From a virus (lineage: Duplodnaviria; Caudoviricetes), in IMG/VR virus record IMGVR_UViG_3300032024_000049, positions 1 to 43,137 of that record: 43,137 nt of DNA. One strand, 5' to 3'. The notes under the pieces were generated by a model. The model saw only the letters and a list, made by a program, of their open reading frames with translations. It ran no database searches and was not told the origin of the DNA. Positions 22,741 through 39,607 of this stretch are shown piece by piece. Position numbers and translations under genes: made by a program. The first letter of the stretch is position 1. Each line of letters opens with the position of its first letter.

Positions 22741-25174
22741 CACGCCGGGCAAGCTACTTTTGCCGTTCGCCGCCGATGGGACTAAAAACGCAATCCCGGT
22801 CGACTCCCAAATTGGCATTGTGGCCGGCAAAGCGTCGCTTGCTGACGGCTTTCCGCCGCTGACGCGCACCCCCTTGTCGGCCGGCGGCGTTCCGCCTTCT
22901 GGCTTGGACATGAACGGTATTTTGTTTGAAATGTCGGACGTTATCCGCTGGGCAAATGCTGGGGGCGGTTACGCTTACGACGCCGCTTTCGCTACCGACA
23001 CCAACGTCGGCGGATACCCCAAAGGCGCCCGCGTCATGCGTTCCGACGGCTTGGGTTATTGGTTCAATACGGTCGATAACAACGAAACCGACCCCGAAGT
23101 GGCAGGGGCCGCCGCCGCAGGCTGGGTTCCTGACTTCACCAGCGGAGCGACTGCTATCGCAATGACGAACGCAAACGTTACGCTAACGCCGCCCCAATAC
23201 GGCAAGCCGACGATTGTTATCAGCGGAATCCTGACCACTAATTTAAATTTGATTTTTCCGAGCATCGCGGGACATTGGAACATCATCAACAATACGACGG
23301 GCAATTTCACCATTACTGCAAAGACATTGGCGGGAACGGGCGTCGCTGTAATTCCCGGCTTCATCGGGTCAATATTCGGCGACGGCGTGAATATATCCGG
23401 CCGACTGGCTGACGTTAGCGGCCCATTGGGCGATACGCTTGTCGGCCACACGGGGAGCGGTTCGGTTGTAACTACCGTCGCCGCTCAACTTCAATTACTG
23501 TCACGGGTTACTGTTTATCTGAAAAGCACGAATACCGCGGCTCAAAACAAAGCGGCGTTCCTTACAGCTATCGCCAGTTTGACGCGCCCGAGTAAGCTAC
23601 TTTTGCCGGACGGGTTCTATGAGTGCGCCCCGGGCATTGACCTTGGTACACTGGTTGTATCCATTGAGGGCGGCGGCAAATATGGAACGTACCTTAGCAA
23701 TTCAGCGGCAACCGCGGCGACTTATTTCTTTGGCGTTGCCGATGCGACGCTAATGGAATATTTGCGTTTTTCTGAATTTGGCATTGACTGCGGGGGCGCG
23801 GTATTGCACGGATTTCGCTTGGCTAAATGCAACCATTCCAAATTCGGCGAACTACTAGTGACTGGCGCAAGCGCAAGCGCCATGTATATTGGCGGCTATT
23901 CAAACGACTTTGTCGAAAACGATATATTTGTAAATGCCGGCAGCGGCATGTATCTAACCGGGACGTTAAATAACGTGGACGTTACCCGGAATCGGATTTA
24001 TGCAAATGACGGAATCGGCATTATTCTTGGTAGCACGGACGCCGACGCCGGCCTGTCAATTTCAATCCATGACGGTAACGCAATTGAAGCCAACAAAATT
24101 GCCGGCATCATCGCATTCAATACCAAGGGGCTGAATATCCGCGGCAATTACTTTGAACGGAACGGGGCGACCGGATATCCTTATAGCGTTCCAGAATCAA
24201 TAGTAATTCGAGCCGACATTCATTTACTTTCAGCCGATGATTTTCGAATCGGGAATAACGACACCTATTCCAACAAGTCCCCGATTATAAGCGGAAACCA
24301 AGCGGCGGCGATTGGCGTCGGAACGGCTTTGCCAAATATGGACGGCTTTATTTTCACGTCGCATGCTGACAACTTGCGCGTCGAAAATAACGAAATGTTT
24401 GACGCAACTAAAATTAATGCTCTGGTTTCATGTTACGCAAACCGCACTTATTCCAAGATTACCGGCGGAATGTCACTTTCTGGAAACACCACGGACAGCG
24501 TCGGTTACATTGGGACCGTTAGCGCCGCTACTCAATGCTTGGCTACACAGCACTTTGTCGACAATCAGGAACTTCCCGAAATCGTCAATTATGCAGAACC
24601 AAATTTTCTTGCCTGGATTATTTTTGACGGCACGGCGGGAACTTTGGTGCGCGCCTCGAATGCTTATTTAGGGCTTCCGGTTTTCCAACTCACCGACGGC
24701 GACTTTCAGTGGGGATTCGGAGTCGACACCAATATAAACCCGGAATTGCTGGGCAAGTGGGTTTATTTCGGCATGTGGGTTAACACGCAAGGCGGTAACA
24801 CAAATGCCCGACTTTTCATTTCGGGCAATTCTAGTTCCGGTGCGACTGACTTTGACGCGACGTCGACCTGGAAATTCAAGAGTACTCTTTTGCAAATTTC
24901 CAATACTCCCGGCGTCACCTATTTCGGAGTAAAGAAAGTCGGAACTGGCGTACCCGTGTTGCTCTGCAATCCGGTTGTCAGTGTGGTCGGTGGGGCGTAC
25001 AACCAACACCGACCACAAGTACCCGTGTGGAAGCGGGGGGCGGCACCAACGACGGGCACTTGGAAACTAGGGGACCGTGTTTTTAACGTCACACCGGCCG
25101 TCGGACAGCCTAAATCATGGATTTGCACGGTCGCCGGTACGCCGGGAACTTGGGTAAGTGAGGGGAATTTATAA
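22727..25174 (+). CDS. Tail fibre/tailspike with beta-helix (putative depolymerase) domain
   Basis: N-terminal anchor GFPPLT..P..AGG.PP.G.DMNG.L and GGYPKGA; Asn/Gly-rich beta-helix repeats; C-terminal WKLGDRV.N..P..G...WIC...GTPGTW. Confidence 0.88.
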   Translation: MQLSNTPGKLLLPFAADGTKNAIPVDSQIGIVAGKASLADGFPPLTRTPLSAGGVPPSGLDMNGILFEMSDVIRWANAGGGYAYDAAFATDTNVGGYPKGARVMRSDGLGYWFNTVDNNETDPEVAGAAAAGWVPDFTSGATAIAMTNANVTLTPPQYGKPTIVISGILTTNLNLIFPSIAGHWNIINNTTGNFTITAKTLAGTGVAVIPGFIGSIFGDGVNISGRLADVSGPLGDTLVGHTGSGSVVTTVAAQLQLLSRVTVYLKSTNTAAQNKAAFLTAIASLTRPSKLLLPDGFYECAPGIDLGTLVVSIEGGGKYGTYLSNSAATAATYFFGVADATLMEYLRFSEFGIDCGGAVLHGFRLAKCNHSKFGELLVTGASASAMYIGGYSNDFVENDIFVNAGSGMYLTGTLNNVDVTRNRIYANDGIGIILGSTDADAGLSISIHDGNAIEANKIAGIIAFNTKGLNIRGNYFERNGATGYPYSVPESIVIRADIHLLSADDFRIGNNDTYSNKSPIISGNQAAAIGVGTALPNMDGFIFTSHADNLRVENNEMFDATKINALVSCYANRTYSKITGGMSLSGNTTDSVGYIGTVSAATQCLATQHFVDNQELPEIVNYAEPNFLAWIIFDGTAGTLVRASNAYLGLPVFQLTDGDFQWGFGVDTNINPELLGKWVYFGMWVNTQGGNTNARLFISGNSSSGATDFDATSTWKFKSTLLQISNTPGVTYFGVKKVGTGVPVLLCNPVVSVVGGAYNQHRPQVPVWKRGAAPTTGTWKLGDRVFNVTPAVGQPKSWICTVAGTPGTWVSEGNL

Positions 25175-25431
25175 TGGACCAGCAACAACTATTTAACGTT
25201 CTTTTTGCCATTGTCGGCGTACTTGGTGGCTGGTGGATGAAGGCCATGTGGGAAGCCGTCAAGTCACTGGAACATGCGGACAAGGCGTTAAGCAATCAAG
25301 TCGGTGAACTGCGGGTGCTAGTGGCCGGCGGCTATGTCAAAACGGAACAATTTGAATCCCATTCGAAGGCGATATTTTCAAAACTCGACCGAATCGAAGA
25401 CAAATTGGACAACAAAGTCGACAAACCGTAG
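25174..25431 (+). CDS. Single-TM lysis-region protein (holin/antiholin-like)
   Basis: N-terminal TM followed by a coiled coil (KLDRIEDKLD); directly upstream of the lysin. Confidence 0.65.
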   Translation: MDQQQLFNVLFAIVGVLGGWWMKAMWEAVKSLEHADKALSNQVGELRVLVAGGYVKTEQFESHSKAIFSKLDRIEDKLDNKVDKP

Positions 25432-25442
25432 GAGAATCCGGC

Positions 25443-26384
25443 ATGAAACCGCTTATTCGACACCGTTCCTTGTTCCTGTTCGGGGGTGCTATCTTGGCCG
25501 CCCTGGCGTCCTTTTGGACTGACCCGGACGCCAACGGCTTGTCGACCCTCTTGGGCGGCCTGGCGCTCATTCAAGGCATTTGGGCCGTGGCCGCCAGCCA
25601 TTGGGCACGCAAGGCCCTGACGGACTACCCGGAAGCCGACCAACGCCGCTTGTTTGCCAAGGCCGCGGAAGACCCCGTCGGCGCCGGGCTTGCGCTTATT
25701 GCCCTGGCAATCACGTTTGTCGGGCTGCTGCTGGTCTTTGCGCCCCGTGCCCATGCTGACACCTTGCCGGCCGGCTTCATCACGTATGGCCCCGTTCTGA
25801 AAGCCGAACAGGCCAAATATTGGGCCGACCATCCGGACCCGGCAATTTTGGCCGCCCTGGTTGAGCAAGAGTCGTGCGCCAGCTTGAAGTCGCCGCGATG
25901 TTGGAACCCGGCCGCCCGGCTCAAATCGGCACGCGAAGAGGGCGCCGGCATGGGGCAGATTACGCGGGCTTACCGTGCCGACGGCTCCTTGCGCTTTGAC
26001 GCCCTGGCGGGGCTCCGGGGCCAGTACGGCGCGGACTTGGCCGGCTTGTCTTGGGATACCGTCTATCAGCGCCCCGACCTGCAATTGCGGGCCTTGGTTC
26101 TCATGTCCCGGGATTCCGCCCGAACGTTTCGCGGGGCGCCCGCCTGGTTGGCGTTCGGGGATGCTGGCTATAACGGCGGCGTCGCTGGTGCCCAAAAGGA
26201 GCGCCGGGCCTGCAAGCTGTCCACCGGCTGTGACCCGGGCCAATGGTTTGGGCATGTGGAAGCGCATTGCCTCAAGTCCCGGCAACCCATTTACGACAAC
26301 CGTTCGGCGTGTGACATTAACCGGGAGCATGTCCGCAATGTGCTTTTGTTACGCCGGGCGAAGTATGTCGGGGTCATGTCATGA
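25443..26384 (+). CDS. Endolysin (lytic transglycosylase) fused to an N-terminal 3-TM membrane domain
   Basis: Three hydrophobic segments in the first ~100 aa; EQES catalytic motif, GAGMGQIT, YNGG. Confidence 0.85.
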   Translation: MKPLIRHRSLFLFGGAILAALASFWTDPDANGLSTLLGGLALIQGIWAVAASHWARKALTDYPEADQRRLFAKAAEDPVGAGLALIALAITFVGLLLVFAPRAHADTLPAGFITYGPVLKAEQAKYWADHPDPAILAALVEQESCASLKSPRCWNPAARLKSAREEGAGMGQITRAYRADGSLRFDALAGLRGQYGADLAGLSWDTVYQRPDLQLRALVLMSRDSARTFRGAPAWLAFGDAGYNGGVAGAQKERRACKLSTGCDPGQWFGHVEAHCLKSRQPIYDNRSACDINREHVRNVLLLRRAKYVGVMS

Positions 26385-26893
26385 ACCGCCTTGTCGGCAT
26401 GATTACGGGCAATCCCGGCTTGCTGTTTTGGCTGGTAATTGCAGCGTTCGTCATTGGTATGGGCTCCGGCGGTTCCGCGGCCTGGTGGGCACAAGGGCTA
26501 CGCCTCGACGCCGTGCAAGCTGAATACGACGGCTTTGTTGCCACAACCAAGGCCGAAGGGGAAGCCGCAAAGAAGCTGGCGGACGCTACGGCCGCCGAAG
26601 ATAAACGGAAAAAGGAGAGTTCCGACCATGAATATCAAACAACTATTGCCGGCCTTAATGCTGACGTTAAGCGCATGCGCGACGCCCGTGCCGGTAGCCG
26701 TTTCATGCCCGCCGCCCCCGCCGGCTCCCGACGTGTTGACCTTGCCTGTTTCGACCGGGCCGAGCTTGAGCGAACGTTACGAGACTTTGATACAGCAATT
26801 CAAGGACTCGTTGACCAAGGCAGCGCGGACGCCGTAGGGCTCAACGTGGCCCGCTCTTGGGCTGCTGGCATTCGTCCCGATACGTCCCATTGA
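26381..26893 (+). CDS. Inner-membrane spanin (Rz-like)
   Basis: N-terminal TM plus coiled coil; follows the endolysin. Confidence 0.82.
   Translation: MNRLVGMITGNPGLLFWLVIAAFVIGMGSGGSAAWWAQGLRLDAVQAEYDGFVATTKAEGEAAKKLADATAAEDKRKKESSDHEYQTTIAGLNADVKRMRDARAGSRFMPAAPAGSRRVDLACFDRAELERTLRDFDTAIQGLVDQGSADAVGLNVARSWAAGIRPDTSH
26628..26837 (+). CDS. Outer-membrane lipoprotein spanin (Rz1-like), embedded in Rz in the +1 frame
   Basis: AGGAG RBS; MNIKQLLPALMLTLSAC lipobox; Pro-rich CPPPPPAP. Confidence 0.85.
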   Translation: MNIKQLLPALMLTLSACATPVPVAVSCPPPPPAPDVLTLPVSTGPSLSERYETLIQQFKDSLTKAARTP

Positions 26894-27023
26894 AGTCGGG
26901 CCAATAACCCGCCTTGACCATTTCGCAATAGCGTTCCTGTTCGGCTTGCTGGTCTTCGTAATCCATTTGACCGGCAAGCCCGAATAGCCCCAGCAGGGTC
27001 AGCAGTACGACGGTCGTCTTCAT
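26841..27023 (-). CDS. Small membrane-anchored phage protein
   Basis: Hydrophobic N-terminus; DYED..E..YCEMV..G.WPD motif; ATGA-type overlap with the upstream gene. Confidence 0.7.
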   Translation of the reverse strand: MKTTVVLLTLLGLFGLAGQMDYEDQQAEQERYCEMVKAGYWPDFNGTYRDECQQPKSGPR

Positions 27024-27487
27024 AGTTCCACCCTATCCAAAAATAAACGGTAAGCCGCCTGCATGCCGGCCCTGTGGCCGCCATTGGCCTGGTAAGTCTT
27101 GACCATTTCGGCCGCCACGTCTTCCGGGAGCTTGTCGGGGAACCTGGCCGGTTCGCGGGGCTTCGCTTCAAACTTCACGGACTCTTTGACCGCTTTAAGC
27201 CGCCGGTCAACCTTGCGGCACTCCGGCGGCTCCGGGTCGTTCGTGTCCCAAGTGAGCCCGCACGGGGCGCACATCATTTGGTCGCCGTATTGGCGGGCCT
27301 GGCAAGCGTGGCGCTTCATCGCGGGTTCGGCGTCGATCCAGTCGCTGTAGCCACGATCTGCGACCAATCGGTTTGCAACATCGTGCATTTGCTCTTGGCC
27401 ATCGAATATTCGTGATTGCGACGGAACCGGCCACGGGTCGCAGCACATCAGCAAGTCAAGAAAAGCGCGGAATTCCATGTTGTTCAT
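27020..27487 (-). CDS. Apparent fusion: cassette-borne N-terminus (MNNMEF..WIDA) joined to a Zn-finger phage protein (MKRHAC.., 27319-27020)
   Basis: AGGAG RBS before 27487; internal Met at 27319 begins CQARQYGDQMMC..CGL.WD.ND..PP.C. Confidence 0.6.
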   Translation of the reverse strand: MNNMEFRAFLDLLMCCDPWPVPSQSRIFDGQEQMHDVANRLVADRGYSDWIDAEPAMKRHACQARQYGDQMMCAPCGLTWDTNDPEPPECRKVDRRLKAVKESVKFEAKPREPARFPDKLPEDVAAEMVKTYQANGGHRAGMQAAYRLFLDRVEL

Positions 27488-27511
27488 TTCAATCTCCTGT
27501 AGTAAAAACCC

Positions 27512-27594
27512 GCATAACACAGCGGTCGATGTCGCGCTTCGCGCTGGACCTTCGGCAACTGGCGTTGCCTCGGCCCATCACCTAAGCGTTAGAA
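27512..27594 (+). mobile_element. Integron attC-like site 1 (83 bp)
   Basis: R'' GCATAAC, 5 nt, L'' GGTCGATG (one extra base), hairpins including GGCAAC/GTTGCC, L' CATCACC, 5 nt, R' GTTAGAA. Confidence 0.8.
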
Positions 27595-27821
27595 GGCGTC
27601 AGATGCACAATGCGCACGTCCTTCGCCCATGATTTCCCGTCGAGGTACATCCCGACGTTGAAAAATTTGTTCTTGCGCAGGTTGAAAATCACCTCGGTTC
27701 CGTCGTGCTCGGAAACCTTCACGCGTTGCGCTTTGGCGTGCGTCAGTTCGCGGCCGTCGCTTATCAGCAACAGGTCGCCTTCGCGCACATGGTCAATCTT
27801 TACCAGCGGTTCAATCTGCAT
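27582..27821 (-). CDS. Gene-cassette ORF, 79 aa, antisense to attC
   Basis: Purine-rich RBS; fills the space between the two attC sites; stop codon lies inside attC1 (ends ...TPSNA*). Confidence 0.75.
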   Translation of the reverse strand: MQIEPLVKIDHVREGDLLLISDGRELTHAKAQRVKVSEHDGTEVIFNLRKNKFFNVGMYLDGKSWAKDVRIVHLTPSNA

Positions 27822-27902
27822 TTCTTTCCCTTTCTCAACCAGCCTTCTAACTCCACGGTGCAGCGGACCTTCGCTGCGCTCAGTCCGCTAACCTACGGCG
27901 CG
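27589..27902 (+). mobile_element. Complete integron-type gene cassette (~314 bp)
   Basis: Left core GTTAGAAGGC (27588-27597) is the exact reverse complement of GCCTTCTAAC (27842-27851) at R'' of attC2. Confidence 0.75.
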
Positions 27903-27908
27903 TTAATC
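27845..27908 (+). mobile_element. Integron attC-like site 2 (degenerate right end)
   Basis: R'' TTCTAAC, TCCAC, L'' GGTGCAGC, stem AGCGGAC/GTCCGCT, L' GCTAACC, 8 nt, GTTAATC. Confidence 0.68.
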
Positions 27909-27973
27909 CTGAAAAGTTGGGCAACAGCGACGCCCGCCAGCAACCAAAGGAGCAAGAGGGCGGCGGCTGTCAT
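27893..27973 (-). CDS. 26-aa hydrophobic peptide whose C-terminus runs into attC2
   Basis: MTAAALLLLWLLAGVAVAQLFRINAP*; ATGA overlap with the stop of the upstream HTH gene. Confidence 0.5.
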   Translation of the reverse strand: MTAAALLLLWLLAGVAVAQLFRINAP

Positions 27974-28152
27974 TTTGGATAATCCTTGCAATTTCGGGTT
28001 TGCTCTTGGAGCTTCCAAGCCTTATACCAAGGGGCCATGTAAATTGCGGAACGGGTCAAACCAACTTTAGCGGCCGCGGCGTAGGGTGTAACGCCCCGTT
28101 CCGTCACCATCTTGCGGGCTTTGACCATTGCGGCGGATTCGCGGGCGGCCAT
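27970..28152 (-). CDS. Small helix-turn-helix DNA-binding protein
   Basis: GVTPYAAAAKVGLTRSAIY HTH pattern; GAGG RBS. Confidence 0.75.
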   Translation of the reverse strand: MAARESAAMVKARKMVTERGVTPYAAAAKVGLTRSAIYMAPWYKAWKLQEQTRNCKDYPK

Positions 28153-28370
28153 TATTCAGCCCTCGTAAAGTAGGCGCAATGGTCTTTAAGGTCGTCGCGA
28201 CGATTGATGTGACCGCCGTGAGGGGCCGGCGCTTTCCTAATCCAATACATGCTTGCCGGCAATTCTGGCATTTTATACGGGTAGGCGCACCGTCCGTCGC
28301 CGGAAGGATGCAGTCGACCGGACGCGGTTTTATTCCAATCAGCATGCTTGCAATTTGTGCAATTTTTCAT
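28152..28370 (-). CDS. Cys-rich hypothetical protein
   Basis: MKNCTNCKHA.W..T..GRLHPSGDGRC; GGAG RBS. Confidence 0.7.
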   Translation of the reverse strand: MKNCTNCKHADWNKTASGRLHPSGDGRCAYPYKMPELPASMYWIRKAPAPHGGHINRRDDLKDHCAYFTRAE

Positions 28371-28372
28371 GG

Positions 28373-28864
28373 CTACTCGCTCCCCAGCAATTCGGTAAGG
28401 CCCTGCAGCGTGTGGGTGGCTTTCTTGATATCCAGCATACCCCCCTTGTCTTTCTCCCGCGCCAGGTACGCAATCGCCGTACCCTTCATGTACCCGCGGA
28501 ACTCTTCGGGCGTAAGCCATCGCTGCAAGACTTCCCACGGCTGATAGTCCCCCAGCTTTTTGTAATGGTCCCCGCCCTCTTGCACGTCAAGCGCCGACAT
28601 AGCTTCGGCCACGGTGGGCAGCGGTTCGCCGTCAACCTCAAAGATTGTCGCAACTTCGGAAGTATTAACGTCACCCGTGCCGCTGGCTCCCTGGTAATGG
28701 GTAATCGACTCGTTCGAGTTGTAAACCACGAACACGGCGCCGGATTCCCGGTCGGTAAGTTTGGTCCCAGCCTTGTATTGCACTTCGTACCCCTTGTTTA
28801 AACAAAATCCCAAGCATTCCCCTTCCGGAGAGTTGCAACCGCTCCCGACGTGCGGGCAAGTCAT
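28373..28864 (-). CDS. DUF3310-like protein with N-terminal extension
   Basis: QEGGDHYK...QPWE...F.GY.KG.AI.YL.R...KGG..D..KA. Confidence 0.75.
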   Translation of the reverse strand: MTCPHVGSGCNSPEGECLGFCLNKGYEVQYKAGTKLTDRESGAVFVVYNSNESITHYQGASGTGDVNTSEVATIFEVDGEPLPTVAEAMSALDVQEGGDHYKKLGDYQPWEVLQRWLTPEEFRGYMKGTAIAYLAREKDKGGMLDIKKATHTLQGLTELLGSE

Positions 28865-29184
28865 TTGGCGCACTCCTTGTTGACGTATTCCTGGGCCGCC
28901 CAATCGACTTGCCATTCCTCAAAAGGAACCATGTCGGCATTTTTCAGGCGGGTAATAATGTAAATCAACGCTTCCGCCGCATGGTCACGACTCGCCGGGA
29001 ACGGTTGCCGCTTCATCCGGTATTCCATGGCCGCCCGGTACGCCGGCAACGGTGGATTGGCAGGGTCGAGCGTGACAAGCATATAAGCTTCGTGGGCCAC
29101 GCGGACCCCTTGCAAACATGAATTGTCGCCAGCCTGGGCGTCGCCCCATGCTGCAAAAGCAAGGATTAAGAGAATTACGCGCAT
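28861..29184 (-). CDS. Putative exported protein
   Basis: Signal-peptide-like MRVILLILAFAAWGDAQA; AGGAG RBS. Confidence 0.65.
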   Translation of the reverse strand: MRVILLILAFAAWGDAQAGDNSCLQGVRVAHEAYMLVTLDPANPPLPAYRAAMEYRMKRQPFPASRDHAAEALIYIITRLKNADMVPFEEWQVDWAAQEYVNKECAK

Positions 29185-29196
29185 GGTGTGGGCTCC

Positions 29197-29427
29197 TTAT
29201 TCGAGGGCTTCATTAAGCGAAGAGTCGATATCGTCAAATGCCGACAGTGCGTTATCCAGCGCGTTTGCGGCATTTTCGGAAGCCTGGCCGCGTTCGGATT
29301 GCTGCAAGCCTTCCGGCATATTATCAAAGGCGTCTTGTTCCTCATTTTGCAGGGTTTCCACGCGGGAACGAAGGTCGGCCAGTTCGTTAAGGACGGCTTC
29401 AATTTCTTTGCGACGTTGGTTGTTCAT
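29197..29427 (-). CDS. Small acidic coiled-coil phage protein
   Basis: MNNQRRK...EEQDAFDNMPEGLQ.SERG; first gene after a class A promoter. Confidence 0.8.
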   Translation of the reverse strand: MNNQRRKEIEAVLNELADLRSRVETLQNEEQDAFDNMPEGLQQSERGQASENAANALDNALSAFDDIDSSLNEALE

Positions 29428-29459
29428 GGTTCGCGCTCCGGTTTATTGTTGACGCCCTC

Positions 29460-29488
29460 AATATAGCTAAATAATTTATCTACGTCAA
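29460..29488 (-). promoter_or_regulatory. Class A promoter/operator overlapping the DNA polymerase stop codon
   Basis: Minus strand TTGACG-TAGATAAATTATTTAGC-TATATT. Confidence 0.85.
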
Positions 29489-31501
29489 CTGATAAAAGCC
29501 GACATCTTTAAGCATCGCTTCGGCCTTGCCGACGTACCACGCATAGTCGATATCGTCCGGGAATTCGTCCGGTAGCGTCATGCACGGGCGGGCACCATAG
29601 GAAAGGCTTACCGTGTTGCCGTTGCTGGCGTAGACGATGGGGCCAGGCGCTTGCGTGCTGTAGTACCAGCGCACCACCTTTCCCAAATACTCCGGCGTTT
29701 GCTGGGCAAAGCAACTTTGGTACGCTGTGGCCGCGTCCGTCACGCTGTCACCCTTGCGCCACTTGCGGCCCTCTTTGGTCCAACCGTTGGCGGCCAGGGT
29801 GCCGACCATGTCCATGACCCGGGCGCCCTTGCGCGGCCCTTCGCCCCACATTTTGACGCCGCCCCCGTTGACCTTCTGGATGGTTATGAATTTGGTAATG
29901 TCCCGGCATGCGGCTATGGTGTAGTCGACTGGCACGCCCTTTGCCAAGAATTCGGCCGCGGCGTCCGCGCAAATCTCGACGTCGGGGTTCTTCTTTTCAA
30001 CCAAGCCGCCCTTGCCATACTCACCTTTGCGCTTCACGTCGTCCGCGGTCTTGATGGCGAAATAGTTGTTCACGTCACGGGCGTAAATCGCCAAGTAATC
30101 GTCGGTTTCCATTTCCAGCCCCGTACGCTTTTCCCATTCGGCAATCAGGGCTTCCGATACGTGCAGCTTGTCCCGCGGGCAGTTCACCACAATGCCGTCG
30201 GTATTGGCTGAAATGACCGGGACGCCGTAAAGTTCGTGCCATTCAATCAGCATCAAAAGGGACAATTGGCCGGTCAACGTGGTTTGAATCAACATTTCAG
30301 GGGCAAAAAGTACGCTGTACGGGCTCCCGGTCTTCCCAAAGGTGCCGTTAATCATGATCTTGCCGCCCTCGTTGCCGACCTTAGCTTCCTCATATTCCGG
30401 GCTGCTTGTGTCCCCGGCCTTCTTTAATTTGCCTTGAAGTGACTTTGCGGCCAGGCGGTCCAACTTAATGGCGTCAAATTCCCGAATGAAGGCGTCGCCC
30501 AAGGCCGGCGGCCATGCTCCGGCGTTGACCATCAAATTGGGGTAATAGCTAGCAACGTCCGGCATGCGGATTTGGTGCGTTTCGCTGCTGACGGCGACTA
30601 GCCTTTTCTCCTGGGAGTGCAAGCCGCCGATGCCCATTTTATAGACCGACCCGCCAAGTTTAATTTCCAGCCCGTCAAGCTGTGGCGGCATGGCGACGGT
30701 GCCCTTGGCGTCAAGCTGAAAAATGGATTGCTGCACCAGTTCAAGCGCCCTTTGCAATTGGGGCGACGCGTAGGAAATGAACGCCGGCACCTTGTACCGA
30801 AATTTCAAGTTCCAATCAATTTCCGGCTTGAAGATGCGCCGCCCCGTGGCCTGTTCGCATCGGCGCTTCAATACGGCTTCCGCGACCTGGGCATCGGACT
30901 TGCTCCGAAGGTCCAACCCGTATCGCTTGCCCAAGGCTTCCCGCTGGTGGATTTGCGGCTGCAGGGCGTCAAAGAGGGCTTCCAGCACAGCAAGGTCGTT
31001 TTCGCAATACGTGTCGACCTCCACAATCTCCGCTTCCGTGACATAGTGGCCCGGGTCATACGGCAAGTCGCGCATGGTCTTACAGTGAATCCGGCCGGCG
31101 TATTGCTTTTGGGAGCCGGCGCCGGGCGCCACTTCCATTACGTCGATATGGTCCGCGGGGCGCCACTCCGGCAAGCCGAGTTCCCAAGGCTTCACCTTTT
31201 CAACGATGATACGGTCGTTAAGCCATTTCAATTGCTCCGCGGTGTAGCCGGACAGCGCCGCGGTAATCATGGGGACGTCGTAATAGTTGCCGTTGAAGCT
31301 GACGGAGCAATAGGCGTCGAACAGTAGCCGAATGCGGGCGGCCGTGGCCTGGTCAAACGCTTGACCGGCGCGAAGCCGGAAGCCATACGCCCGGCCGCCA
31401 CGGGGGCGGAATTTCAACAACCAATAGTTTGGGAAACATTCCGTGTCGTAAAACGCGACCGGGCGCGTTGCTGGGGCTGGTGGGGGCGGTGGCGCAATCA
31501 T
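29480..31501 (-). CDS. DNA polymerase, family B-like, with N-terminal 3'-5' exonuclease
   Basis: Exonuclease motifs YDTEC, FNGNYYD, YCEND; polymerase motifs DVASYYP, KIMINGTFG, ANTDG. Confidence 0.9.
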   Translation of the reverse strand: MIAPPPPPAPATRPVAFYDTECFPNYWLLKFRPRGGRAYGFRLRAGQAFDQATAARIRLLFDAYCSVSFNGNYYDVPMITAALSGYTAEQLKWLNDRIIVEKVKPWELGLPEWRPADHIDVMEVAPGAGSQKQYAGRIHCKTMRDLPYDPGHYVTEAEIVEVDTYCENDLAVLEALFDALQPQIHQREALGKRYGLDLRSKSDAQVAEAVLKRRCEQATGRRIFKPEIDWNLKFRYKVPAFISYASPQLQRALELVQQSIFQLDAKGTVAMPPQLDGLEIKLGGSVYKMGIGGLHSQEKRLVAVSSETHQIRMPDVASYYPNLMVNAGAWPPALGDAFIREFDAIKLDRLAAKSLQGKLKKAGDTSSPEYEEAKVGNEGGKIMINGTFGKTGSPYSVLFAPEMLIQTTLTGQLSLLMLIEWHELYGVPVISANTDGIVVNCPRDKLHVSEALIAEWEKRTGLEMETDDYLAIYARDVNNYFAIKTADDVKRKGEYGKGGLVEKKNPDVEICADAAAEFLAKGVPVDYTIAACRDITKFITIQKVNGGGVKMWGEGPRKGARVMDMVGTLAANGWTKEGRKWRKGDSVTDAATAYQSCFAQQTPEYLGKVVRWYYSTQAPGPIVYASNGNTVSLSYGARPCMTLPDEFPDDIDYAWYVGKAEAMLKDVGFYQLT

Positions 31502-31887
31502 TGCACTTGCCACGCTTCAAGGCCGTACTCTTGAGCAACTTCCCGCGCTTTTGTTGCTGCGGATTCCTGTTCAGCCCGACAAAATTCCATGAACGGACGC
31601 CCCGGCTTGACTCCCTGGCGGTGCGCTTGGTCTTGCTTTACCTGCATGGCGATATGTTCCCGGCTATTGCGGTAAGCCTTTTGGGCGGCCAGTTTGCGCC
31701 CGTCAACTTCGGTTTGAATGGCGACCTTAATTTCCTTGGAATTAAGCCCGGTGTGGCGGGTGGCACAAACGGAACCGTAATGCAGAATTTCCCCGTTAAC
31801 CTCAACAATCACGGTCGCTTTAAGGTTGGTTTTTCCGCAGCAATCACAAGTATTCACGGCGTCGTCGGTTCCAAGGATTTTAAACAT
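31498..31887 (-). CDS. Hypothetical protein with Zn-finger N-terminus
   Basis: CDCCGKTNLK...YGSVCA; GGAG RBS after a class A promoter. Confidence 0.8.
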   Translation of the reverse strand: MFKILGTDDAVNTCDCCGKTNLKATVIVEVNGEILHYGSVCATRHTGLNSKEIKVAIQTEVDGRKLAAQKAYRNSREHIAMQVKQDQAHRQGVKPGRPFMEFCRAEQESAATKAREVAQEYGLEAWQVQ

Positions 31888-31922
31888 TTTTCTTTGCTCC
31901 GGTTCGTTGAGTTGATGGACGA

Positions 31923-31951
31923 AGTATAGATAAATTATTTATCTATGTCAA
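31923..31951 (-). promoter_or_regulatory. Class A promoter/operator
   Basis: Minus strand TTGACA-TAGATAAATAATTTATC-TATACT. Confidence 0.9.
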
Positions 31952-32225
31952 CAGCTTTTTACAGCCAGCGCACGCCGGGTCATCAAAGCGCGTCACCGTG
32001 TGGCATTCAACGCTCGACACGTCGACCACCCATACCATTTGCGGCAACACCACCTTGTGGCCGCACTCGCCGACCTGAGCCATTTTGTAGCCGTTCGCGC
32101 AATTGTTCGGCCGTGGGATATTTGCCAATTCCCATGCCAACCGTAGCGACGCCGGACATTTCGCCGTCAGTAATGTGGACCTTCAGTTCAACTTCGACCG
32201 GCCCTTGTATTTTCGTTTCGCTCAT
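31943..32225 (-). pseudogene. Probable chimeric or degraded genes (MSETKIQ.. plus an out-of-frame Cys-rich C-terminus)
   Basis: Protein-like sequence switches frame near 32100, from ..AEQLRERL to ..VECHTVTRFDDPACAGCKK. Confidence 0.4.
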
Positions 32226-32226
32226 T

Positions 32227-32652
32227 TCAATACTTCTTCCCGCCGTCGGCCTTGCGGTTTTCGGGCTTGTGGTCCGGGCGGTTGCGGTTGTATTCCATCT
32301 TTTCCGCGATAGCCCCGCCAAGGTCAAGACCAAGGGCGCCGGCCAAGTCCGCGATGCGGATAACTGCGTCGGCTAGTTCCACTTCAATCATGGGGCGGTG
32401 CGGAAGCTTGTCGTCGGCCAGGCCCTTGCGGTGCCCTTCCATTGCCTCCGAAACTTCGGAATGAATCAAGCACAATTTTTGTGCGACCAAAGCCTTACCG
32501 AATCGCCCGTCGCCGCGAACTTCAGCAACGTCATAGGGTAGGTCGCCGGTTTGCTCAAGTTCGCCCCACCAGCCGGCGGCGGCGCTGGCACCGTGGCAGT
32601 AGTCGACCAACACGTTGCCGGCGTCCTTAATATCCTCGAAAGGAAATTTCAT
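32227..32652 (-). CDS. MazG-like nucleotide pyrophosphohydrolase
   Basis: LIHSEVSEAMEG.RK...EVELADAVIRI.DL...KM.YN..R. Confidence 0.85.
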   Translation of the reverse strand: MKFPFEDIKDAGNVLVDYCHGASAAAGWWGELEQTGDLPYDVAEVRGDGRFGKALVAQKLCLIHSEVSEAMEGHRKGLADDKLPHRPMIEVELADAVIRIADLAGALGLDLGGAIAEKMEYNRNRPDHKPENRKADGGKKY

Positions 32653-32663
32653 TTTCGTACCTC

Positions 32664-32694
32664 AAAAGTAAGCCCGGCCCCGAAGGGCCAGGCG
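32664..32694 (-). terminator. Intrinsic terminator after the SSB-like gene
   Basis: Minus strand GCCTGGCCC-TTCG-GGGCCGGGC-TTACTTTT. Confidence 0.8.
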
Positions 32695-32700
32695 GTTGCG

Positions 32701-33777
32701 TTAAGCCAGCATCAAGCCGTTTTGGACCAACTGAGCGTCGGACCAGCCGGCGGCGACGTACGCTTCATAGGTCACGCCTTGGGCGTTGGCCGTCATTTGG
32801 CGCACAGGAATTACCGGAGCGGGTGGCGGTGCCATGGGGGCCGGAGCCGGCGGGGGAACCTGCACAAAGCCCGGGTTAGGAGTAACCGGGATGGGCGCAG
32901 GCGCACCCGGGACAGGGGCGTAAGGCATCGGCACAGAACCAGCGGGCGCCAAAGGGGCCGGAGCAACCCCCGGGATTTGCGGCACGCCAGCGGGCACGGG
33001 CGGCGGCACAGAACCAGCGGGCGCCAAAGGGGCCGGAGCAACCCCCGGGATTTGCGGCACGCCAGCGGGCACGGGCGGCGGCGCATAGCCAACAGGGGCG
33101 CCAGGAAGCGCCGGAGCGGCGGCGGGGGCCTGGGGCATCGGGATTGCGCCGGCCGGCGGCGTCATGCTGGCGCCAACAGGCAAAGCCGATTGGCCGAAAC
33201 CAGCCGAAGCAACGTCGGGGCCAAAGGAAATTTCAGGACCATAGGCGCGGAAACAGACCATTGAATGATTGATGTAGACGCCCGGCTGGCTTTGCGAACC
33301 ATTGCCGTCGACGCTAAATGCAACCTCCACAAAATAGCCCGGCTTGCAAAAGTCTTTTTGCATGACTTGGACATAGCCGGCGCCCTCTTGCTGGTACACC
33401 TTCGGGGCAAAGCCGCCGGAGAATTTCAGAATCCAGTGACCGCGCCAGCCTTCATTTTCGACCGGCTTGCGACCCTTCTTGTTCGGAATCTGGCTGTCGC
33501 CGTCTTCGATCTTCCACGCGAAGGCCGGGGATTGGGCGGCGTTCGGGAAAGCCTGATTGCCGACGTTCCAGATTTGTTGCCCCCAAGGCGTATGCGCCCA
33601 ATGCGGTTCAGCACCCTTCGGGATTGCCAGGGCGAAGAAGTAGTTAACGCGGGGCTGGCCGGCGTTCGGGCCGGTCTTCACGACCAGCGGTTTGCCTTCG
33701 GCGTCCGTGGTGCTGGGGTCGTAGAGCGAACCCATGACAATGCGACCGACGGGGGAAGTGATATTTACTTTTGCCAT
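32701..33777 (-). CDS. Single-stranded DNA-binding protein-like, with Pro/Ala-rich tail
   Basis: GRIV.GS...FAWKIEDGD...K.GY.V.V....GN.....PGVYIN; sits beside the Cas4-like gene. Confidence 0.75.
   Translation of the reverse strand: MAKVNITSPVGRIVMGSLYDPSTTDAEGKPLVVKTGPNAGQPRVNYFFALAIPKGAEPHWAHTPWGQQIWNVGNQAFPNAAQSPAFAWKIEDGDSQIPNKKGRKPVENEGWRGHWILKFSGGFAPKVYQQEGAGYVQVMQKDFCKPGYFVEVAFSVDGNGSQSQPGVYINHSMVCFRAYGPEISFGPDVASAGFGQSALPVGASMTPPAGAIPMPQAPAAAPALPGAPVGYAPPPVPAGVPQIPGVAPAPLAPAGSVPPPVPAGVPQIPGVAPAPLAPAGSVPMPYAPVPGAPAPIPVTPNPGFVQVPPPAPAPMAPPPAPVIPVRQMTANAQGVTYEAYVAAGWSDAQLVQNGLMLA
32929..33082 (-). repeat. 75-bp exact tandem duplication
   Basis: PPPVPAGVPQIPGVAPAPLAPAGSV twice. Confidence 0.9.
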
Positions 33778-33789
33778 GTTGCGGGCTCC

Positions 33790-33996
33790 TTATTTCTTGG
33801 ACTTGCTTGTGGACTTCGCGGGCTTGACGTCCACGACGGGGGTTTCGGTTTCATCGGCAACGAATGCGGGGAAGTGGCCGCGAATCATGCCATGTTCGCC
33901 ACGCGCCCAAAGGTTACGAAACACCCCGGCGTCGCCTTCGTCCGCCAGATTGGCCGCGAATGCTTCGGCGTCGGCGTCGGTCTTCTTAATTTCCAT
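33790..33996 (-). CDS. Hypothetical protein
   Basis: AGGAG RBS; fills the intergenic gap exactly. Confidence 0.7.
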   Translation of the reverse strand: MEIKKTDADAEAFAANLADEGDAGVFRNLWARGEHGMIRGHFPAFVADETETPVVDVKPAKSTSKSKK

Positions 33997-34008
33997 TTTG
34001 CATACTCC

Positions 34009-35145
34009 TTAGTTTGTGGTGCCGAAGACGCGACGCGCATCGGCGGGATTATCGGGAACCAACTTTATAGACCCCAATGGAGTGATACTGTAAGCCTTAA
34101 TGACGGCTTCGTCAACACCCGACTTTAATGCTTGCTTCGGGGTCTTGACGCCAGGCTTTGAAAGGTCGACGCCCATGAGCGAACCCATGGCAAGCACTTG
34201 GTCGACGGGCATGGTCCATTGCGGGCGACCGTAGCCTTGTTCCGCACGGTGCCAGGGTACGGAATGCCCTTGGCGGATGTAGGTTGCTACGGCTTCCCGC
34301 ATGCCTTCGACGCGGGCGGTCAATCGTTCTAACGACCGTTCCATCATCTTTAGCTCAAGGCTGGCGGCGGCCGGCGGCAATTCAACGGGCGGGGATTTTA
34401 CGGCAAATTCCGCGTCGTAATAGGCCGCTTGCTGCAGGGCCGGGCAAGCATGGCGCCCCGGGCAATCTCCGCATTCTGGATTCGTGACAGCCGGCGGATT
34501 GGGGGCCAGGGCGACCCTTGCAGCGTTGGCAAGCTGGTTGGTGTGGGCGCGAAGGTCCGAAGCCACGACCGACCAAGTACGAACCGGTGACCCCTTGTAG
34601 AAGCATCGCGGCTGTATGACGGTAATTCGCACGCGGACGGCCTGGTCGAAAATGCCGACGCCCTTGCTCAACAGGTGCGCCAAATGCTCAACGATGCCGG
34701 ATGTATATGCCACACATTGGTCGTTTTCGTACTCGTCAACGAAGCGGTGCCCGAACTTGTAGTCGATAACGTCAAGGACATAGGTCGAGCAATCAAACGC
34801 CCAAATATCAGGGGTGCCGAAGCATTCCGGATGAATCGCCGGAATAGCGACCCGCTGTTCAACGTTCAACGGTACGCCGGCCGGAACCAGCGCCCGCGCC
34901 GTATCGACCACAAGTTCCCCGCCCTCTATCATTTCTTCGGTAATAAAAACACCGTTGGGGGCTTGCATTCCTTCAAGCACCGGACGCCCCGCCAGCATTT
35001 CCGCAAAGACCCAATGGGCCGCGTTACCTTCCAAACTCTCCGGCGTGTCCGGTTGCGGGTAAGCCTGGTTCATGGCGACCCAAAGGCCGCACAGTTTCCA
35101 AGCCCCCGCACCCGAAGGTGGAAGGATTGAATGGGCGCCGCTCAT
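34009..35145 (-). CDS. Cas4-like/PD-(D/E)XK exonuclease (DUF2800-like)
   Basis: HS.L.PS....W..C, EG.AAH, FGTPD, IDYKFG, IQPR and C..CPG...C motifs. Confidence 0.88.
   Translation of the reverse strand: MSGAHSILPPSGAGAWKLCGLWVAMNQAYPQPDTPESLEGNAAHWVFAEMLAGRPVLEGMQAPNGVFITEEMIEGGELVVDTARALVPAGVPLNVEQRVAIPAIHPECFGTPDIWAFDCSTYVLDVIDYKFGHRFVDEYENDQCVAYTSGIVEHLAHLLSKGVGIFDQAVRVRITVIQPRCFYKGSPVRTWSVVASDLRAHTNQLANAARVALAPNPPAVTNPECGDCPGRHACPALQQAAYYDAEFAVKSPPVELPPAAASLELKMMERSLERLTARVEGMREAVATYIRQGHSVPWHRAEQGYGRPQWTMPVDQVLAMGSLMGVDLSKPGVKTPKQALKSGVDEAVIKAYSITPLGSIKLVPDNPADARRVFGTTN
34087..34115 (-). promoter_or_regulatory. Class B promoter/operator inside the nuclease CDS, upstream of the SSB operon
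   Basis: Minus strand TTGACG-AAGCCGTCATTAAGGCT(17)-TACAGT. Confidence 0.7.
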
Positions 35146-36122
35146 TGACGGGCAGCAATCAAGGCGTCGATATGGGCCGCAACCTGGGCAACCAAATCAA
35201 GCCGGTTTGCCAAGAGCGGAAGGGCAGGAACGCCAGCGTCGACGCAACACTGGTTCACTTCGGCTTGCGTCACCTTCTGCCCCTGGATAGCGGCGGACGC
35301 ACGGCCAACCAGCGCAACGAACATTGCGCGGGCATCGGCCGGGACTTCACCAACGACGGGGGCTTGGGGTGCAGCCGGCGGCAAGGGTGCGGCAACGGCC
35401 GGAGATACGGAAGCGGTCGGCAAGTTCGCAGTAACCGGGGCGGCCGGCGCAAGGGGAGGGGTCGGAGCGATAGGCGCAGTCGTAGGGGCCAAAGGGGTAA
35501 CGCCCGGCGCCCCCATTAGCTGGCGCAATTCGGCTTCAACCTGGGCAACCTGCGCCGGGTCGAGTTTGCGCTTTTTGCGCCAGGTGCCGTCGGCAATCTT
35601 GCCTTTGCTTTCCGCATGAATGCGGTTATCCCAAGGCATGCCCTTGGCGTCCAAATCGACACCCGCGACCGAAGAGGCAACGCCAGGCGTCGTCGTAATC
35701 GGGGCAGTATTCGCCGGGGGCGGCGGGGCAACGGTAGAGGCCGCCGCACCGGGAGGGATGGAAAGGGCCAAAGGGGCGGGGGGTACTCCAAAGGCCGCGG
35801 CCGGAGCAAGACCAACGTCGGCAAGAGTAGGGCCGGCCGCACCTTGCCCAAAAATGGCATTCAGTTTGGCGGCGTCCGCGTCAAGTGCCGGCGAACCGTG
35901 GGTGCCAAATGCGGCGACCGGCATCGTGGATTCGTGGTCATGCTGCAATTTGCCCAACTCGACGAGACTTTGGTCGGCGGTATCCTTACGGATAAATGCC
36001 GGAATCTCCGCGCCGCACGTTCCGGCACAAGCCTTGCCGGGGTAAGCCAAAATAAAACCGGCGACTGCTTCGCGTTGCTCTTGGGACATGTCGGTCGGGT
36101 CGACGCTGATTTGAATGCTCAT
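35142..36122 (-). CDS. Pro/Ala-rich hypothetical replication-region protein
   Basis: GGAG RBS before MSIQISVD; LD..G.PWD.RIH...K...DGTWR..R module. Confidence 0.8.
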   Translation of the reverse strand: MSIQISVDPTDMSQEQREAVAGFILAYPGKACAGTCGAEIPAFIRKDTADQSLVELGKLQHDHESTMPVAAFGTHGSPALDADAAKLNAIFGQGAAGPTLADVGLAPAAAFGVPPAPLALSIPPGAAASTVAPPPPANTAPITTTPGVASSVAGVDLDAKGMPWDNRIHAESKGKIADGTWRKKRKLDPAQVAQVEAELRQLMGAPGVTPLAPTTAPIAPTPPLAPAAPVTANLPTASVSPAVAAPLPPAAPQAPVVGEVPADARAMFVALVGRASAAIQGQKVTQAEVNQCCVDAGVPALPLLANRLDLVAQVAAHIDALIAARQ

Positions 36123-36168
36123 GGTTAAAAATCTCCGAAAGTTGATGAAGGGCATTGACTACGGGGCA

Positions 36169-36198
36169 ACTATAAACCGATAATGACGCTACCGTCAA
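36169..36198 (-). promoter_or_regulatory. Class B promoter/operator at the divergence point
   Basis: Minus strand TTGACG-GTAGCGTCATTATCGGTT(18)-TATAGT; TGACG-N4-CGTCA palindrome. Confidence 0.75.
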
Positions 36199-36214
36199 CA
36201 GGGTGTAGATAAAA

Positions 36215-37240
36215 ATGATTTTGAACTTGGATTGCCGACACGGCCTTGCGATGCTCCCGGACAACAGCGTCGACGCGATAGTTTGCGACCCTCCTTACGG
36301 GCTCCGCTTCATGCAAGCGAAATGGGATTATGACGTACCTGGCGTCGACATTTGGGTCGAGTGCTTGCGCGTTCTCAAGCCTGGCGGCCACTTGCTGGCG
36401 TTCGCCGGCACACGGACACAGCACCGCATGGCGGTACGCATTGAGGATGCCGGCTTTGAAATCCGCGACATGATCGCTTGGGTCTACGGCAGCGGCTACC
36501 CCAAACACCGGAGCAGCTTAAAGCCAGCCTTGGAGCCCATAACCATGGCCCGCAAGCCGGCGGAACGTGCGACCCTGCTCAATATCGACGCGTGCCGTGT
36601 TGGAACAGAAAGCACGATTCGACCAAATGGCCCGATTGGATATCACGGGGGCGGAAGCGGGGGAATTGGCGGGAGTGAATCCGGGCGTTACCCCGCAAAC
36701 CTGATCCATGACGGAAGCGACGAGGTGCTTGCGCTATTCCCGGACAGCGCGGGGTCGGGGGGCAGCGTGCCAAACGTCAAAATTAGCGGCTACGGGGACG
36801 GAGCGGTCGGCACGGGCTCCGCTGAATACTTGGGCGGCGAACGCACCAAGGTTGATTGCGGAACCGGCAGCGCGGCACGCTTCTTCTATTGCGCCAAGGC
36901 TGGCAAGCGCGACCGCAATGAAGGCTTGGAAGCGTTTCCCGACATAATTTGGCAAACTGTGGCGACCTCCGGGTTGTCAAAACACAGTGACGGTTCCCCG
37001 CGCAATATGAGCCCCGAGGCCAAAAACCCGCATCCTACCGTTAAGCCGACGGAGCTTATGCGCTATCTATGCCGCCTGGTCACGCCGCCGGGCGGGCTGA
37101 TCGTTGACCCCTTTGCTGGATCCGGTAGCACTGGCAAGGCGGCGATTCTTGAGGGTTTCCAGTTCGTTGGTTTTGAATTGGACCCGCAATATACCGCCAT
37201 TGCCAATGCTCGATTGGAGGCCGCCCGCCATGCAGCTTAG
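36215..37240 (+). CDS. DNA amino-methyltransferase (N6-A/N4-C, beta class)
   Basis: DPPY catalytic motif near the N-terminus; HPTVKP and DPFAGSGST near the C-terminus. Confidence 0.92.
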   Translation: MILNLDCRHGLAMLPDNSVDAIVCDPPYGLRFMQAKWDYDVPGVDIWVECLRVLKPGGHLLAFAGTRTQHRMAVRIEDAGFEIRDMIAWVYGSGYPKHRSSLKPALEPITMARKPAERATLLNIDACRVGTESTIRPNGPIGYHGGGSGGIGGSESGRYPANLIHDGSDEVLALFPDSAGSGGSVPNVKISGYGDGAVGTGSAEYLGGERTKVDCGTGSAARFFYCAKAGKRDRNEGLEAFPDIIWQTVATSGLSKHSDGSPRNMSPEAKNPHPTVKPTELMRYLCRLVTPPGGLIVDPFAGSGSTGKAAILEGFQFVGFELDPQYTAIANARLEAARHAA

Positions 37241-38894
37241 ACCGTATCAAATGGAAATCCACGACGCCATTGCGGATGCGTGGTCGGCTGGAAATCAAAA
37301 TGTGCTTGCATGCCTTCCGACTGGAGGGGGCAAGACTGTGACATTCAGCCATATCGTCAAGGAAGAACCTGGATCATCTATCGTGCTGGCGCACCGGGCG
37401 GAACTGGTCGCGCAAATGTCGCTGGCACTTGCTCGCGAAGAGGTACGCCACCGCATAATAGGGCCGTCGTCGCTGGTTCGGCTTTGCGTCAACGCCCATG
37501 TCGGGGAGCTGGGGCGACCCTTTTATGATGCAAACGCAAAAACAGGCGTCGCCAGCGTGCAGAGTGTCACCGCGCATAAGGACGGCTCGCAATGGTTCGA
37601 CCAGATTCGGCTATGGGTGCATGACGAAGCGCACCATTTGCTTAGGGAAAATCAGTTCGGCAAGGCGGTCGCCAGGTTCCCAAATGCCCGCGGGCTTGGG
37701 GTGACTGCCACGCCGGGTCGGGCAGACGGGCGCGGGCTGGGGCGGCATGCCGACGGCCTGTTCGATACCATGGTTATGGGGCCTACCCCACGCTGGCTGA
37801 TCGACCAAGGGTTCCTGTCGCAATACAAGATTTTTGCGCCACCAAGCGACCTTGACCTAACCGCCGTGCACGTAACCGCGAGCGGCGATTACAGTCCGCC
37901 CGAACTAAAGGTGGCCACGCAGAAATCGACCGTGCTAGGCGATACCGTGACACATTACGTCAAGCACGCGTCGGGCAAATCTGGCCTAACCTTCGCCGAT
38001 AGCGTCGAGAATGCCACCGATATCGCGGCACGCTTCCGTGATGCTGGCGTAAGTGCTGAGGTATTGACGGGCAAAACACCCGACGCTTTGCGGGCCAATG
38101 TCATCGCCAAATTCAAGACGCGCCAAGTAATGCAAATAGTGTCTGTCGCCCTGATCGACGAGGGTTTTGATTGCCCTGGTGTGGAAGTCGTGAGCGATGC
38201 GGCAGCAACACAATCATTCAATCGCTTCGCCCAACGATTCGGACGTGGCTTGCGGATCATGGACGGCAAATCACATATGATCTATCTCGATCACGTCGGG
38301 AACACCCTCCGGCACGGGCTCCCGGACGCCCGCCGGGAGTGGTCACTAGACCGCCTGGAGCGCCGGAGCAACGGCAAGTCGGACGCCATCCCAATGCGAG
38401 TTTGCGTCAACCCCGAGTGCGTCCAACCCTACGAACGCGTCTACAAATGCTGCCCGTATTGCGGCCACTACCCGCCCCCGCCAAGCCGAAGCGCCCCGGA
38501 GTTTGTCGACGGCGACCTGTTGGAGCTTGACGCGGAAACACTGGCCGCCTTGCGTGGGGAGATTGCCCGCATTGACGGCGACCCGGTCATTCCCTACGGC
38601 GCCGGGCCGGAAGTGGTCGGGGCTGTCCGCCGCCGGCATTGGGAACGGCAACAGGGCCAAGCGGCCTTGCGGAACGTTATTGCCTGGTGGGCGGGGCTTG
38701 AGAATGCCCAAGGCCACGGGGAGTCCGAAAGTTACCGCCGCTTTTATCATCGCTTCGGGGTCGACGTCGCCAATGCCCAAACCCTCAACGCAAAGGACGC
38801 CGGGGAGCTTGCCGAACGTGTCCGCGTCGAACTTGCTAAATATGGTATTGACGGAACCGTCAACGCCGGGGCATACTTTGCAAATCAGGGGTAA
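37230..38894 (+). CDS. SF2 DEAH-box helicase with C-terminal Zn finger
   Basis: LRPYQ, PTGGGKT, DEAHH, TATP, EGFD and QRFGRGLR motifs. Confidence 0.93.
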   Translation: MQLRPYQMEIHDAIADAWSAGNQNVLACLPTGGGKTVTFSHIVKEEPGSSIVLAHRAELVAQMSLALAREEVRHRIIGPSSLVRLCVNAHVGELGRPFYDANAKTGVASVQSVTAHKDGSQWFDQIRLWVHDEAHHLLRENQFGKAVARFPNARGLGVTATPGRADGRGLGRHADGLFDTMVMGPTPRWLIDQGFLSQYKIFAPPSDLDLTAVHVTASGDYSPPELKVATQKSTVLGDTVTHYVKHASGKSGLTFADSVENATDIAARFRDAGVSAEVLTGKTPDALRANVIAKFKTRQVMQIVSVALIDEGFDCPGVEVVSDAAATQSFNRFAQRFGRGLRIMDGKSHMIYLDHVGNTLRHGLPDARREWSLDRLERRSNGKSDAIPMRVCVNPECVQPYERVYKCCPYCGHYPPPPSRSAPEFVDGDLLELDAETLAALRGEIARIDGDPVIPYGAGPEVVGAVRRRHWERQQGQAALRNVIAWWAGLENAQGHGESESYRRFYHRFGVDVANAQTLNAKDAGELAERVRVELAKYGIDGTVNAGAYFANQG

Positions 38895-38899
38895 AAATT

Positions 38900-39118
38900 A
38901 TGCAATCGCGTTTGAGCAGTTTTATAGAGTCAATGGCAAACGTTCTTATTGGATATTTCGTGTCGTTGCTGGTGCAATTGATCGTTTACCCGATGTTCGG
39001 GGGCGGCACTTCCAAACCAATGACCTTAAAGCAATTTCGGTTGCGCCTGGAAAAACAAGCCGACGACTTTGACTGCAACGACGAGGGGGGTTGTGGTTGT
39101 GCCCTAGCCGGAGAATGA
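38900..39118 (+). pseudogene. Chimeric ORF: membrane-protein N-terminus plus a GGCGC-ending C-terminus
   Basis: MQSRLSSFIES..NV..G...YPMFG joined to GGTSKPMTLKQFR...EGGCGC. Confidence 0.5.
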
Positions 39119-39600: not shown

Positions 39601-39607
39601 TTTATCG

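Follow-up and report, generated by a model that had tools for sequence, protein, structure and literature searches.

How does a phage without an integron integrase come to carry integron gene cassettes, and why do their genes point the wrong way? Integrons are treated as bacterial devices, in which cassette polarity is fixed so that the genes are read from the cassette promoter Pc. Both questions are raised by a 43,137-bp virus record (Duplodnaviria; Caudoviricetes; IMG/VR record IMGVR_UViG_3300032024_000049), which was analysed over its full length and is called the window below. An initial annotation of its sequence had pointed to two attC-like sites with antisense genes. We found that these sites belong to an insert of 577 bp (27326-27902), which comprises two cassettes and has a GTT triplet at either end. 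An integron integrase (IntI) from outside the phage likely placed this backward cassette pair at a bare GTT.

The record is 95% complete (CheckV) and has matches to terminase, portal, baseplate, tail fibre, endolysin, a family-B-type polymerase, helicase and primase. No match to the IntI model TIGR02249, which nine of nine IntI tested passed, was found in it, in agreement with its earlier description as integrase-less, and no attI-like site was found at the cassette locus. The record is not a complete integron (intI and attI in cis); it is a clustered set of attC sites that has no integron integrase (CALIN), defined by at least two nearby attC sites without intI.

The two sites lie where the annotation had placed them, attC1 at 27512-27594 and attC2 at 27845-27908, each with its top strand on the plus strand and its recombining bottom strand on the minus strand. 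In attC1, R'' (GCATAAC) is followed by a 5-nt spacer and by L'' (27524-27531) with one extra base; the right arm consists of L' (27576-27582), a second 5-nt spacer and R' (GTTAGAA). The corresponding parts of attC2 are R'' (TTCTAAC), L'' (27857-27864), L' (27887-27893) and R' (GTTAATC), the last being also the right junction of the insert. Spacer lengths are 5/5 in attC1 and 5/8 in attC2, whose 8-nt L'-R' spacer exceeds the usual 5-6 nt. Compared with the consensus RYYYAAC for R'' and GTTRRRY for R', with conserved AAC/GTT (PMC5027507), the AAC and GTT triplets are exact in both sites, while the outer bases deviate. L'' and L' of attC1 pair fully and leave an extrahelical G on the bottom strand; those of attC2 pair with one bottom-strand G-T and leave an extrahelical C.

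Unconstrained folding did not separate the sites from shuffled sequences (z -1.45 for attC1 and -0.14 for attC2). We therefore turned to a covariance model, for which 20 attC sites were taken from the forward arrays of two host genomes (8 beside intI in L162, 10 from L124, one each from L167 and L128), leaving out the site of L124 that is identical to attC1. Run over the whole window with filters off, the model gave 39.5 bits for attC1 (E 2.9e-9) and 26.1 bits for attC2 (E 2.3e-5), both with the bottom strand on the minus strand; the remaining 11 matches reached at most 9.9 bits. Of the checks that the annotation had proposed, the covariance model and the extrahelical bases came out in favour of attC, but the free fold did not. 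No Rfam match and no terminator-like call was obtained at either site. Judged by their sequence, both hairpins are attC sites, and the phage carries a real two-site CALIN.

The two sites may differ in their present state. When the R and L boxes are imposed on the fold, attC1 reaches -16.3 kcal/mol (minimum -16.6) with a probability of 0.13, which falls within the range of 16 host sites (0.056-0.78). For attC2 the probability is 0.014, whereas a family copy whose spacer has 6 nt gives 0.13. Among 28 distinct rows from the 35 loci of the attC2 family, all but one show a 6-nt spacer followed by GTT. Since no family copy has the 8-nt form, attC2 is probably decayed. The complete (100%) pairing and the covariation in the collected sites are partly built in, as the scanner selected sites by pairing.

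The insertion can be followed from empty alleles. We retrieved 68 relatives with the polymerase, 30 of which contain both flanking genes; none of either set matched the insert. Locus L070 is identical to the window over the 14 bases that lead up to the GTT at 27325-27327 and again over about 70 bases starting with the GTT at 27902-27904, L063 and L065 join the flanks in the same way, and L026 is shorter than the window by exactly 577. The small hydrophobic gene upstream is kept in 10 of the 68 loci, where the site reads GTT in nine and GAT in one, all within the GWT of attG sites, and no homology beyond the GTT flanks it. Contigs of runs X3 and X5 (two of four runs, both from one study, represented by assembled contigs only) skip the 577 bases with three shared letters, at a joint 27324 -> 27902 flagged 'between: not known'. 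Because the filled allele is rare among varied empty alleles, the difference is read as an insertion. The annotation's expectation that relatives without the genes would break at G|TT held in these empty alleles.

At the left junction stands a core GTTCGGC (27325-27331, plus strand), with native phage sequence to its left; the empty alleles join here, and we infer a left crossover at G|TT (27325|27326). On the right, native sequence resumes at 27903, inside R' of attC2. The spacing of the three GTT triplets delimits cassette 2 (27326-27588, 263 bp, plus strand), with a backward gene and attC1, and cassette 1 (27589-27902, 314 bp, plus strand), with a backward 79-aa gene and attC2. The left core of cassette 1 complements its own R'' in 10 of 10 nt (27588-27597 with 27842-27851); this complement and the 314-bp unit had been given exactly by the annotation. 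Its start for the element was wrong, since the third core lies 187 bp further left. The left end of the insert resembles other cassette tails (L004).

Both cassette genes lie on the minus strand, the attC bottom strand, antisense to attC polarity as first described, and not in the canonical orientation of a gene toward its own attC. The 79-aa gene (27582-27821) has its stop codon inside attC1 and is predicted to encode a small beta-barrel (predicted local distance difference test, pLDDT, 91.5). Against PDB structures only weak Tudor/chromo-type matches appeared (E 0.12 or worse), together with two unnamed viral structural matches, and searches of PHROG, Pfam, PDB sequences and Atlas gave no assignment. 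The 51-aa gene of cassette 2 is fused in frame across the junction to a native gene, forming a 155-aa open reading frame (ORF; 27020-27487, minus strand). The native part (phrog_8641) has its own ATG at 27319; the 51-aa part has one free-standing relative, 57% identical and without attC. At the other end, the insertion hit a 26-aa hydrophobic native ORF (27893-27973, minus strand) three codons before its stop, and a new stop comes from attC2. The L070 version of this gene ends overlapping the next ATG.

Does the phage shuffle cassettes routinely, as had been suggested? The absence of the insert from all 30 relatives with both flanking genes, the presence of any attC in only one of the 68 loci (L030) and the decayed look of attC2 do not bear this out, and for these reasons the locus reads as a single capture. 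The locus with attC sites, L030 (9597-12563), has five of them, all on one strand. The variable region has other inserts as well. One, a second indel of about 221 bp (28162-28382), contains a small Cys-rich ORF, lacks attC and is missing from many relatives; another, in L070, contains a 166-aa tyrosine-recombinase fragment (10729-11229).

We then asked whether the backward polarity is particular to this insert. Polarity was scored on de-duplicated units by an amino-acid model trained on this phage's genes, which replaced a count based on ribosome-binding sites that had under-called host genes. Reverse orientation was found in 48 of 49 units at viral loci (none forward, one unclear), in 37 of 37 attC2-family units, and in 87 of 102 units at viral IntI loci (11 forward, 7 of them in L198, and 4 unclear). 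Host arrays gave 15 forward, 2 reverse and 1 unclear of 18. Backward cassettes are thus the rule in related phage DNA, and the reverse-oriented phage pool suspected by the annotation is seen in these counts.

Within this pool, genes and sites are combined in various ways. The 79-aa gene has 74 homologues, 22 of which carry an attC-core-type tail by a simple pattern. The search for attC beside the homologues, proposed by the annotation, showed the gene between other attC sites in L001 and L257, and without attC in L008 and L009. Conversely, attC1 or close variants were found in 12 other flank contexts with different genes, and L085 has the attC1 side, tail, leader and attC2 of cassette 1 around an unrelated gene. 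Of 166 reverse cassettes, 122 have a left core complementary to their own R'' over 7 nt, compared with 12.6 in shuffled sets (maximum 26), as expected if the units circularise. A test for sharp breakpoints at R'' showed outer R'' bases differing in 11 of 30 identical-body pairs; in one pair both matched their own core, with only three pairs testable. L257 shares with the window (27589-27902) the leader, the 79-aa gene (92%) and the tail, with another attC body joined at the AAC of R''; its neighbour is an attC2 body, and a crossover on the R'' side would give the gene/attC2 pairing of the window. The attC variable loop of L085 (685-807) and of L006 (1357-1461) encloses the next gene's start codon together with its ribosome-binding site.

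A tyrosine recombinase is encoded in 4 of 27 related viral records, and two of these are integron integrases. With the prophage IntI copy in L150 as query, we retrieved 72 viral loci. In these, the array is located upstream of intI and attC occupies the opposite strand, which is the usual geometry; the genes point toward intI. The genome G022 encodes terminase, portal, primase and a separate phage integrase in addition to IntI, and a second integrase and phage genes were found nearby in L172, L177 and L201. Many temperate phages evidently hold backward cassettes beside their own IntI. The IntI tree comprised 83 distinct sequences (98 loci, 93 long enough; 50 viral rows), in which 42 of the 50 viral rows group with the prophage copy L160 in a single clade (99/98) that excludes the other 32 host rows, a separation favoured by the sampling: the viral rows were retrieved with a clade member, and the host rows are the top scorers of one family. 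Outside this clade, reverse arrays occur in L209 and beside the host-type IntI of L158. About 50-90 bp upstream of intI, a conserved stretch follows the last cassette core; it contains the inverted repeat CGACA/TGTCG as well as a second TGTC box and is a candidate for the attI of these phage integrons (L168, L169, L171, L172, L177, L179, L183, L184 and L216). A host-type IntI also heads an array with five of five reverse cassettes in L142/L165 (G029:C73).

The phage could be linked to a host family. When 24000-43137 of the window was compared with 401 genomes of the Dechloromonas (G028) family, 20 had matches, and short matches in six were spacers of clustered regularly interspaced short palindromic repeats (CRISPR), the best being 32/32 in G302. 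These spacers tie the phage to the family as its probable hosts. IntI was above the cut-off in five of the six spacer-bearing genomes, one copy being partial, and none was found in G388; in the probable host family, 70 of 121 genomes encode IntI. Bacterial pattern hits numbered 49, mostly by chance, and six loci were accepted (L107, L124, L128, L130, L142 and L150). Among them, the mostly forward array of Dechloromonas sp. CZR5 (L124), not adjacent to intI in the assembly, includes one reverse cassette; its attC and attC1 are identical over 79 nt, an identity also found in L083. The gene of this cassette is 53% identical over 55 residues to a non-cassette phage ORF (32010-32225). The attC1 pattern occurs in only 2 of the 401 genomes, and this rarity suggests a phage-side site that leaks into hosts. 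In the window, the ORF region 31943-32225 matches the L124 cassette gene over the 55 residues and then diverges, possibly by frameshift or fusion. A small reverse-cassette cluster with an attC2-family site lies among chromosomal housekeeping genes in G395 (L325, 7700-8430).

From these data a likely course of events can be proposed. The cassettes would come from the phage-side pool in temperate-phage integrons, where attC faces away from intI, as is usual, and the genes point toward it. We infer that reading from the phage early operon, toward intI, selects for backward genes. The minus (bottom) strand of a circular cassette would fold, and an IntI encoded by a prophage or by the host chromosome would recombine the cassette with a GTT of the phage in a reaction of the attC x attG type. 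The insertion may have been tolerated because attC2 supplies the upstream gene with a stop and cassette 2 keeps the reading frame of the gene downstream. Subsequently, attC2 would have gained 2 nt in its spacer, which likely made it less recombinogenic and fixed the right end.

We consider it unlikely that the phage instead has a functional cassette platform that is repeatedly reshuffled by the chromosomal IntI of the host. The frequent IntI in the probable host family, the identical attC1 in the Dechloromonas array and the host-like fold of attC1 would fit such a platform, but insert and attC sites are nearly absent from the relatives, the locus lacks an attI-like site, the attC2 spacer is aberrant, and the attC1 pattern is too rare in the family to be host-typical. 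Of the idea that the phage exploits a host integrase, the presence of IntI in probable hosts stood up; the host's chromosomal enzyme as the mover stays unsupported, because the temperate-phage clade encodes its own IntI beside the arrays.

Illegitimate or short-homology recombination with the array of another phage, with GTT as a 3-bp microhomology and no part for IntI, seems improbable as the origin of the block. It would account for the attC2 anomaly at the right junction and the mismatched ends of cassette 2, and indels without attC do occur nearby (28162-28382). Yet both ends of the insert fall on the conserved triplet of cassette cores, its left end looks like other cassette tails, and no further homology flanks the site. 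Those exact G|TT breakpoints also speak against hairpins that act mainly as RNA signals for processing or pausing on the phage message, with a secondary likeness to attC. The better-folding strand is indeed the coding strand, and stops and sometimes starts lie inside hairpins; but neither site has an Rfam match or a terminator-like call, and the core/R'' complementarity spans the whole gene, as fits DNA circles. We regard this explanation as very improbable.

Some observations weigh against insertion by an outside integrase, in addition to the sampling of the IntI tree. Because the host-type IntI of L158 also heads an all-reverse array (5/5), the enzyme that moved the cassettes cannot be assigned. 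The left core of cassette 2 does not complement R'' of attC1, only GTT and two further bases matching between the core at 27325 and this R'', so that cassette 2 is apparently not a clean single circle. Runs X1 and X2, which may be the source of the window, contain it unchanged and show no joint. The training of the polarity classifier used genes of this phage, and one of its reverse calls among the host controls is doubtful. Finally, the motif CRGM at positions 6-9 of attG hotspots is replaced by CCTG (27908-27911); CRGM marks hotspots, not all insertions (10.1101/2022.09.11.507474).

On a wider scale, phages might run a second, mirror-image integron economy, a proposal we make tentatively and with more doubt than belief. 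Here the phage IntI clade would keep backward cassettes expressed from early operons, new ones arising when a reusable shell (leader, core and attC body) is filled with ordinary phage genes and when attC bodies are exchanged at R'', and they would flow to integrase-less phages and to host arrays. If so, phages would be one setting in which cassettes arise. How cassettes are made is an open question, for which the pairing of one attC body with many genes, and of one gene with several bodies, offers concrete substrates.

As to the genomic setting, the cassettes sit close to where a leftward run of small genes ends. A sigma-70-like promoter match upstream of this run (29460-29488, minus strand; 10/12) is weak, as the region has 6 promoter-type matches with 4.0 expected. 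GC skew did not fix the replication direction. Positions 21-482 show a low-complexity tandem repeat with a unit of about 15 bp in a translated frame. Cultured phages gave no near match to 24000-34000 and none to the cassettes or attC1; the polymerase is closest to Seurat/CAjan-type coliphages (42%), so that a Bcep781-like phage, considered first, was rejected.

Phage CALINs have been described by Qi et al. 2023 (PMC9892861), who reported 17 in 10,705 phages, both virulent and temperate, likewise as attC clusters without intI. IntI1 recombined five of six sites and joins phage attC with attI1. In the text consulted, the orientation of genes relative to attC is not treated as a pattern, nor are empty sites or an IntI clade of phages; of two of its examples scored with our model, MW202573 (L307, 2069-3738) is reverse and TJE1 forward. 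Further sources compared were Loot 2017 (PMC5371416), Cury 2016 (10.1101/030866), Ghaly 2021 (PMC8618304, PMC8352920), Nemergut 2008 (PMC2426708), Weinberg 2017 (PMC5737381) and a preprint (10.64898/2026.03.17.712381). One opposite-facing symE cassette is described in a preprint (10.1101/2025.06.18.660453); systematic reverse cassettes or a phage IntI clade were not found in the literature covered, which excluded most subscription journals and preprint supplements.

The sedentary chromosomal integrons of Rhodocyclales (Dechloromonas; L162, L124) share the attC family, as judged by the covariance model, and the core/R'' complementarity (11/15) with the phage cassettes, but their genes point toward their own attC (15/18), whereas the phage genes point away, with attC at the 5' end of the gene. 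Top-strand inverted insertion (Nivina et al. 2016, PMC5027507) likewise yields genes facing a promoter; it flips the whole cassette with gene and attC co-oriented, whereas here the gene is reversed relative to attC itself. Insertion of cassettes by IntI at GWT, outside attI, was reported by Loot et al. (10.1101/2022.09.11.507474) in bacterial chromosomes in the laboratory (attG, and single attC sites lacking an integron integrase, SALINs) and proposed as the origin of small CALINs. Unlike these cases, the present one occurred naturally, in a phage; its empty allele is available, and its genes are backward. Clusters of attC in phages and insertion at GWT are already published. The two-site element adds a variant of integron cassettes: a natural insertion at a bare phage GTT with before and after alleles, which ties to a large phage-side pool of opposite polarity, a phage IntI clade and host arrays.
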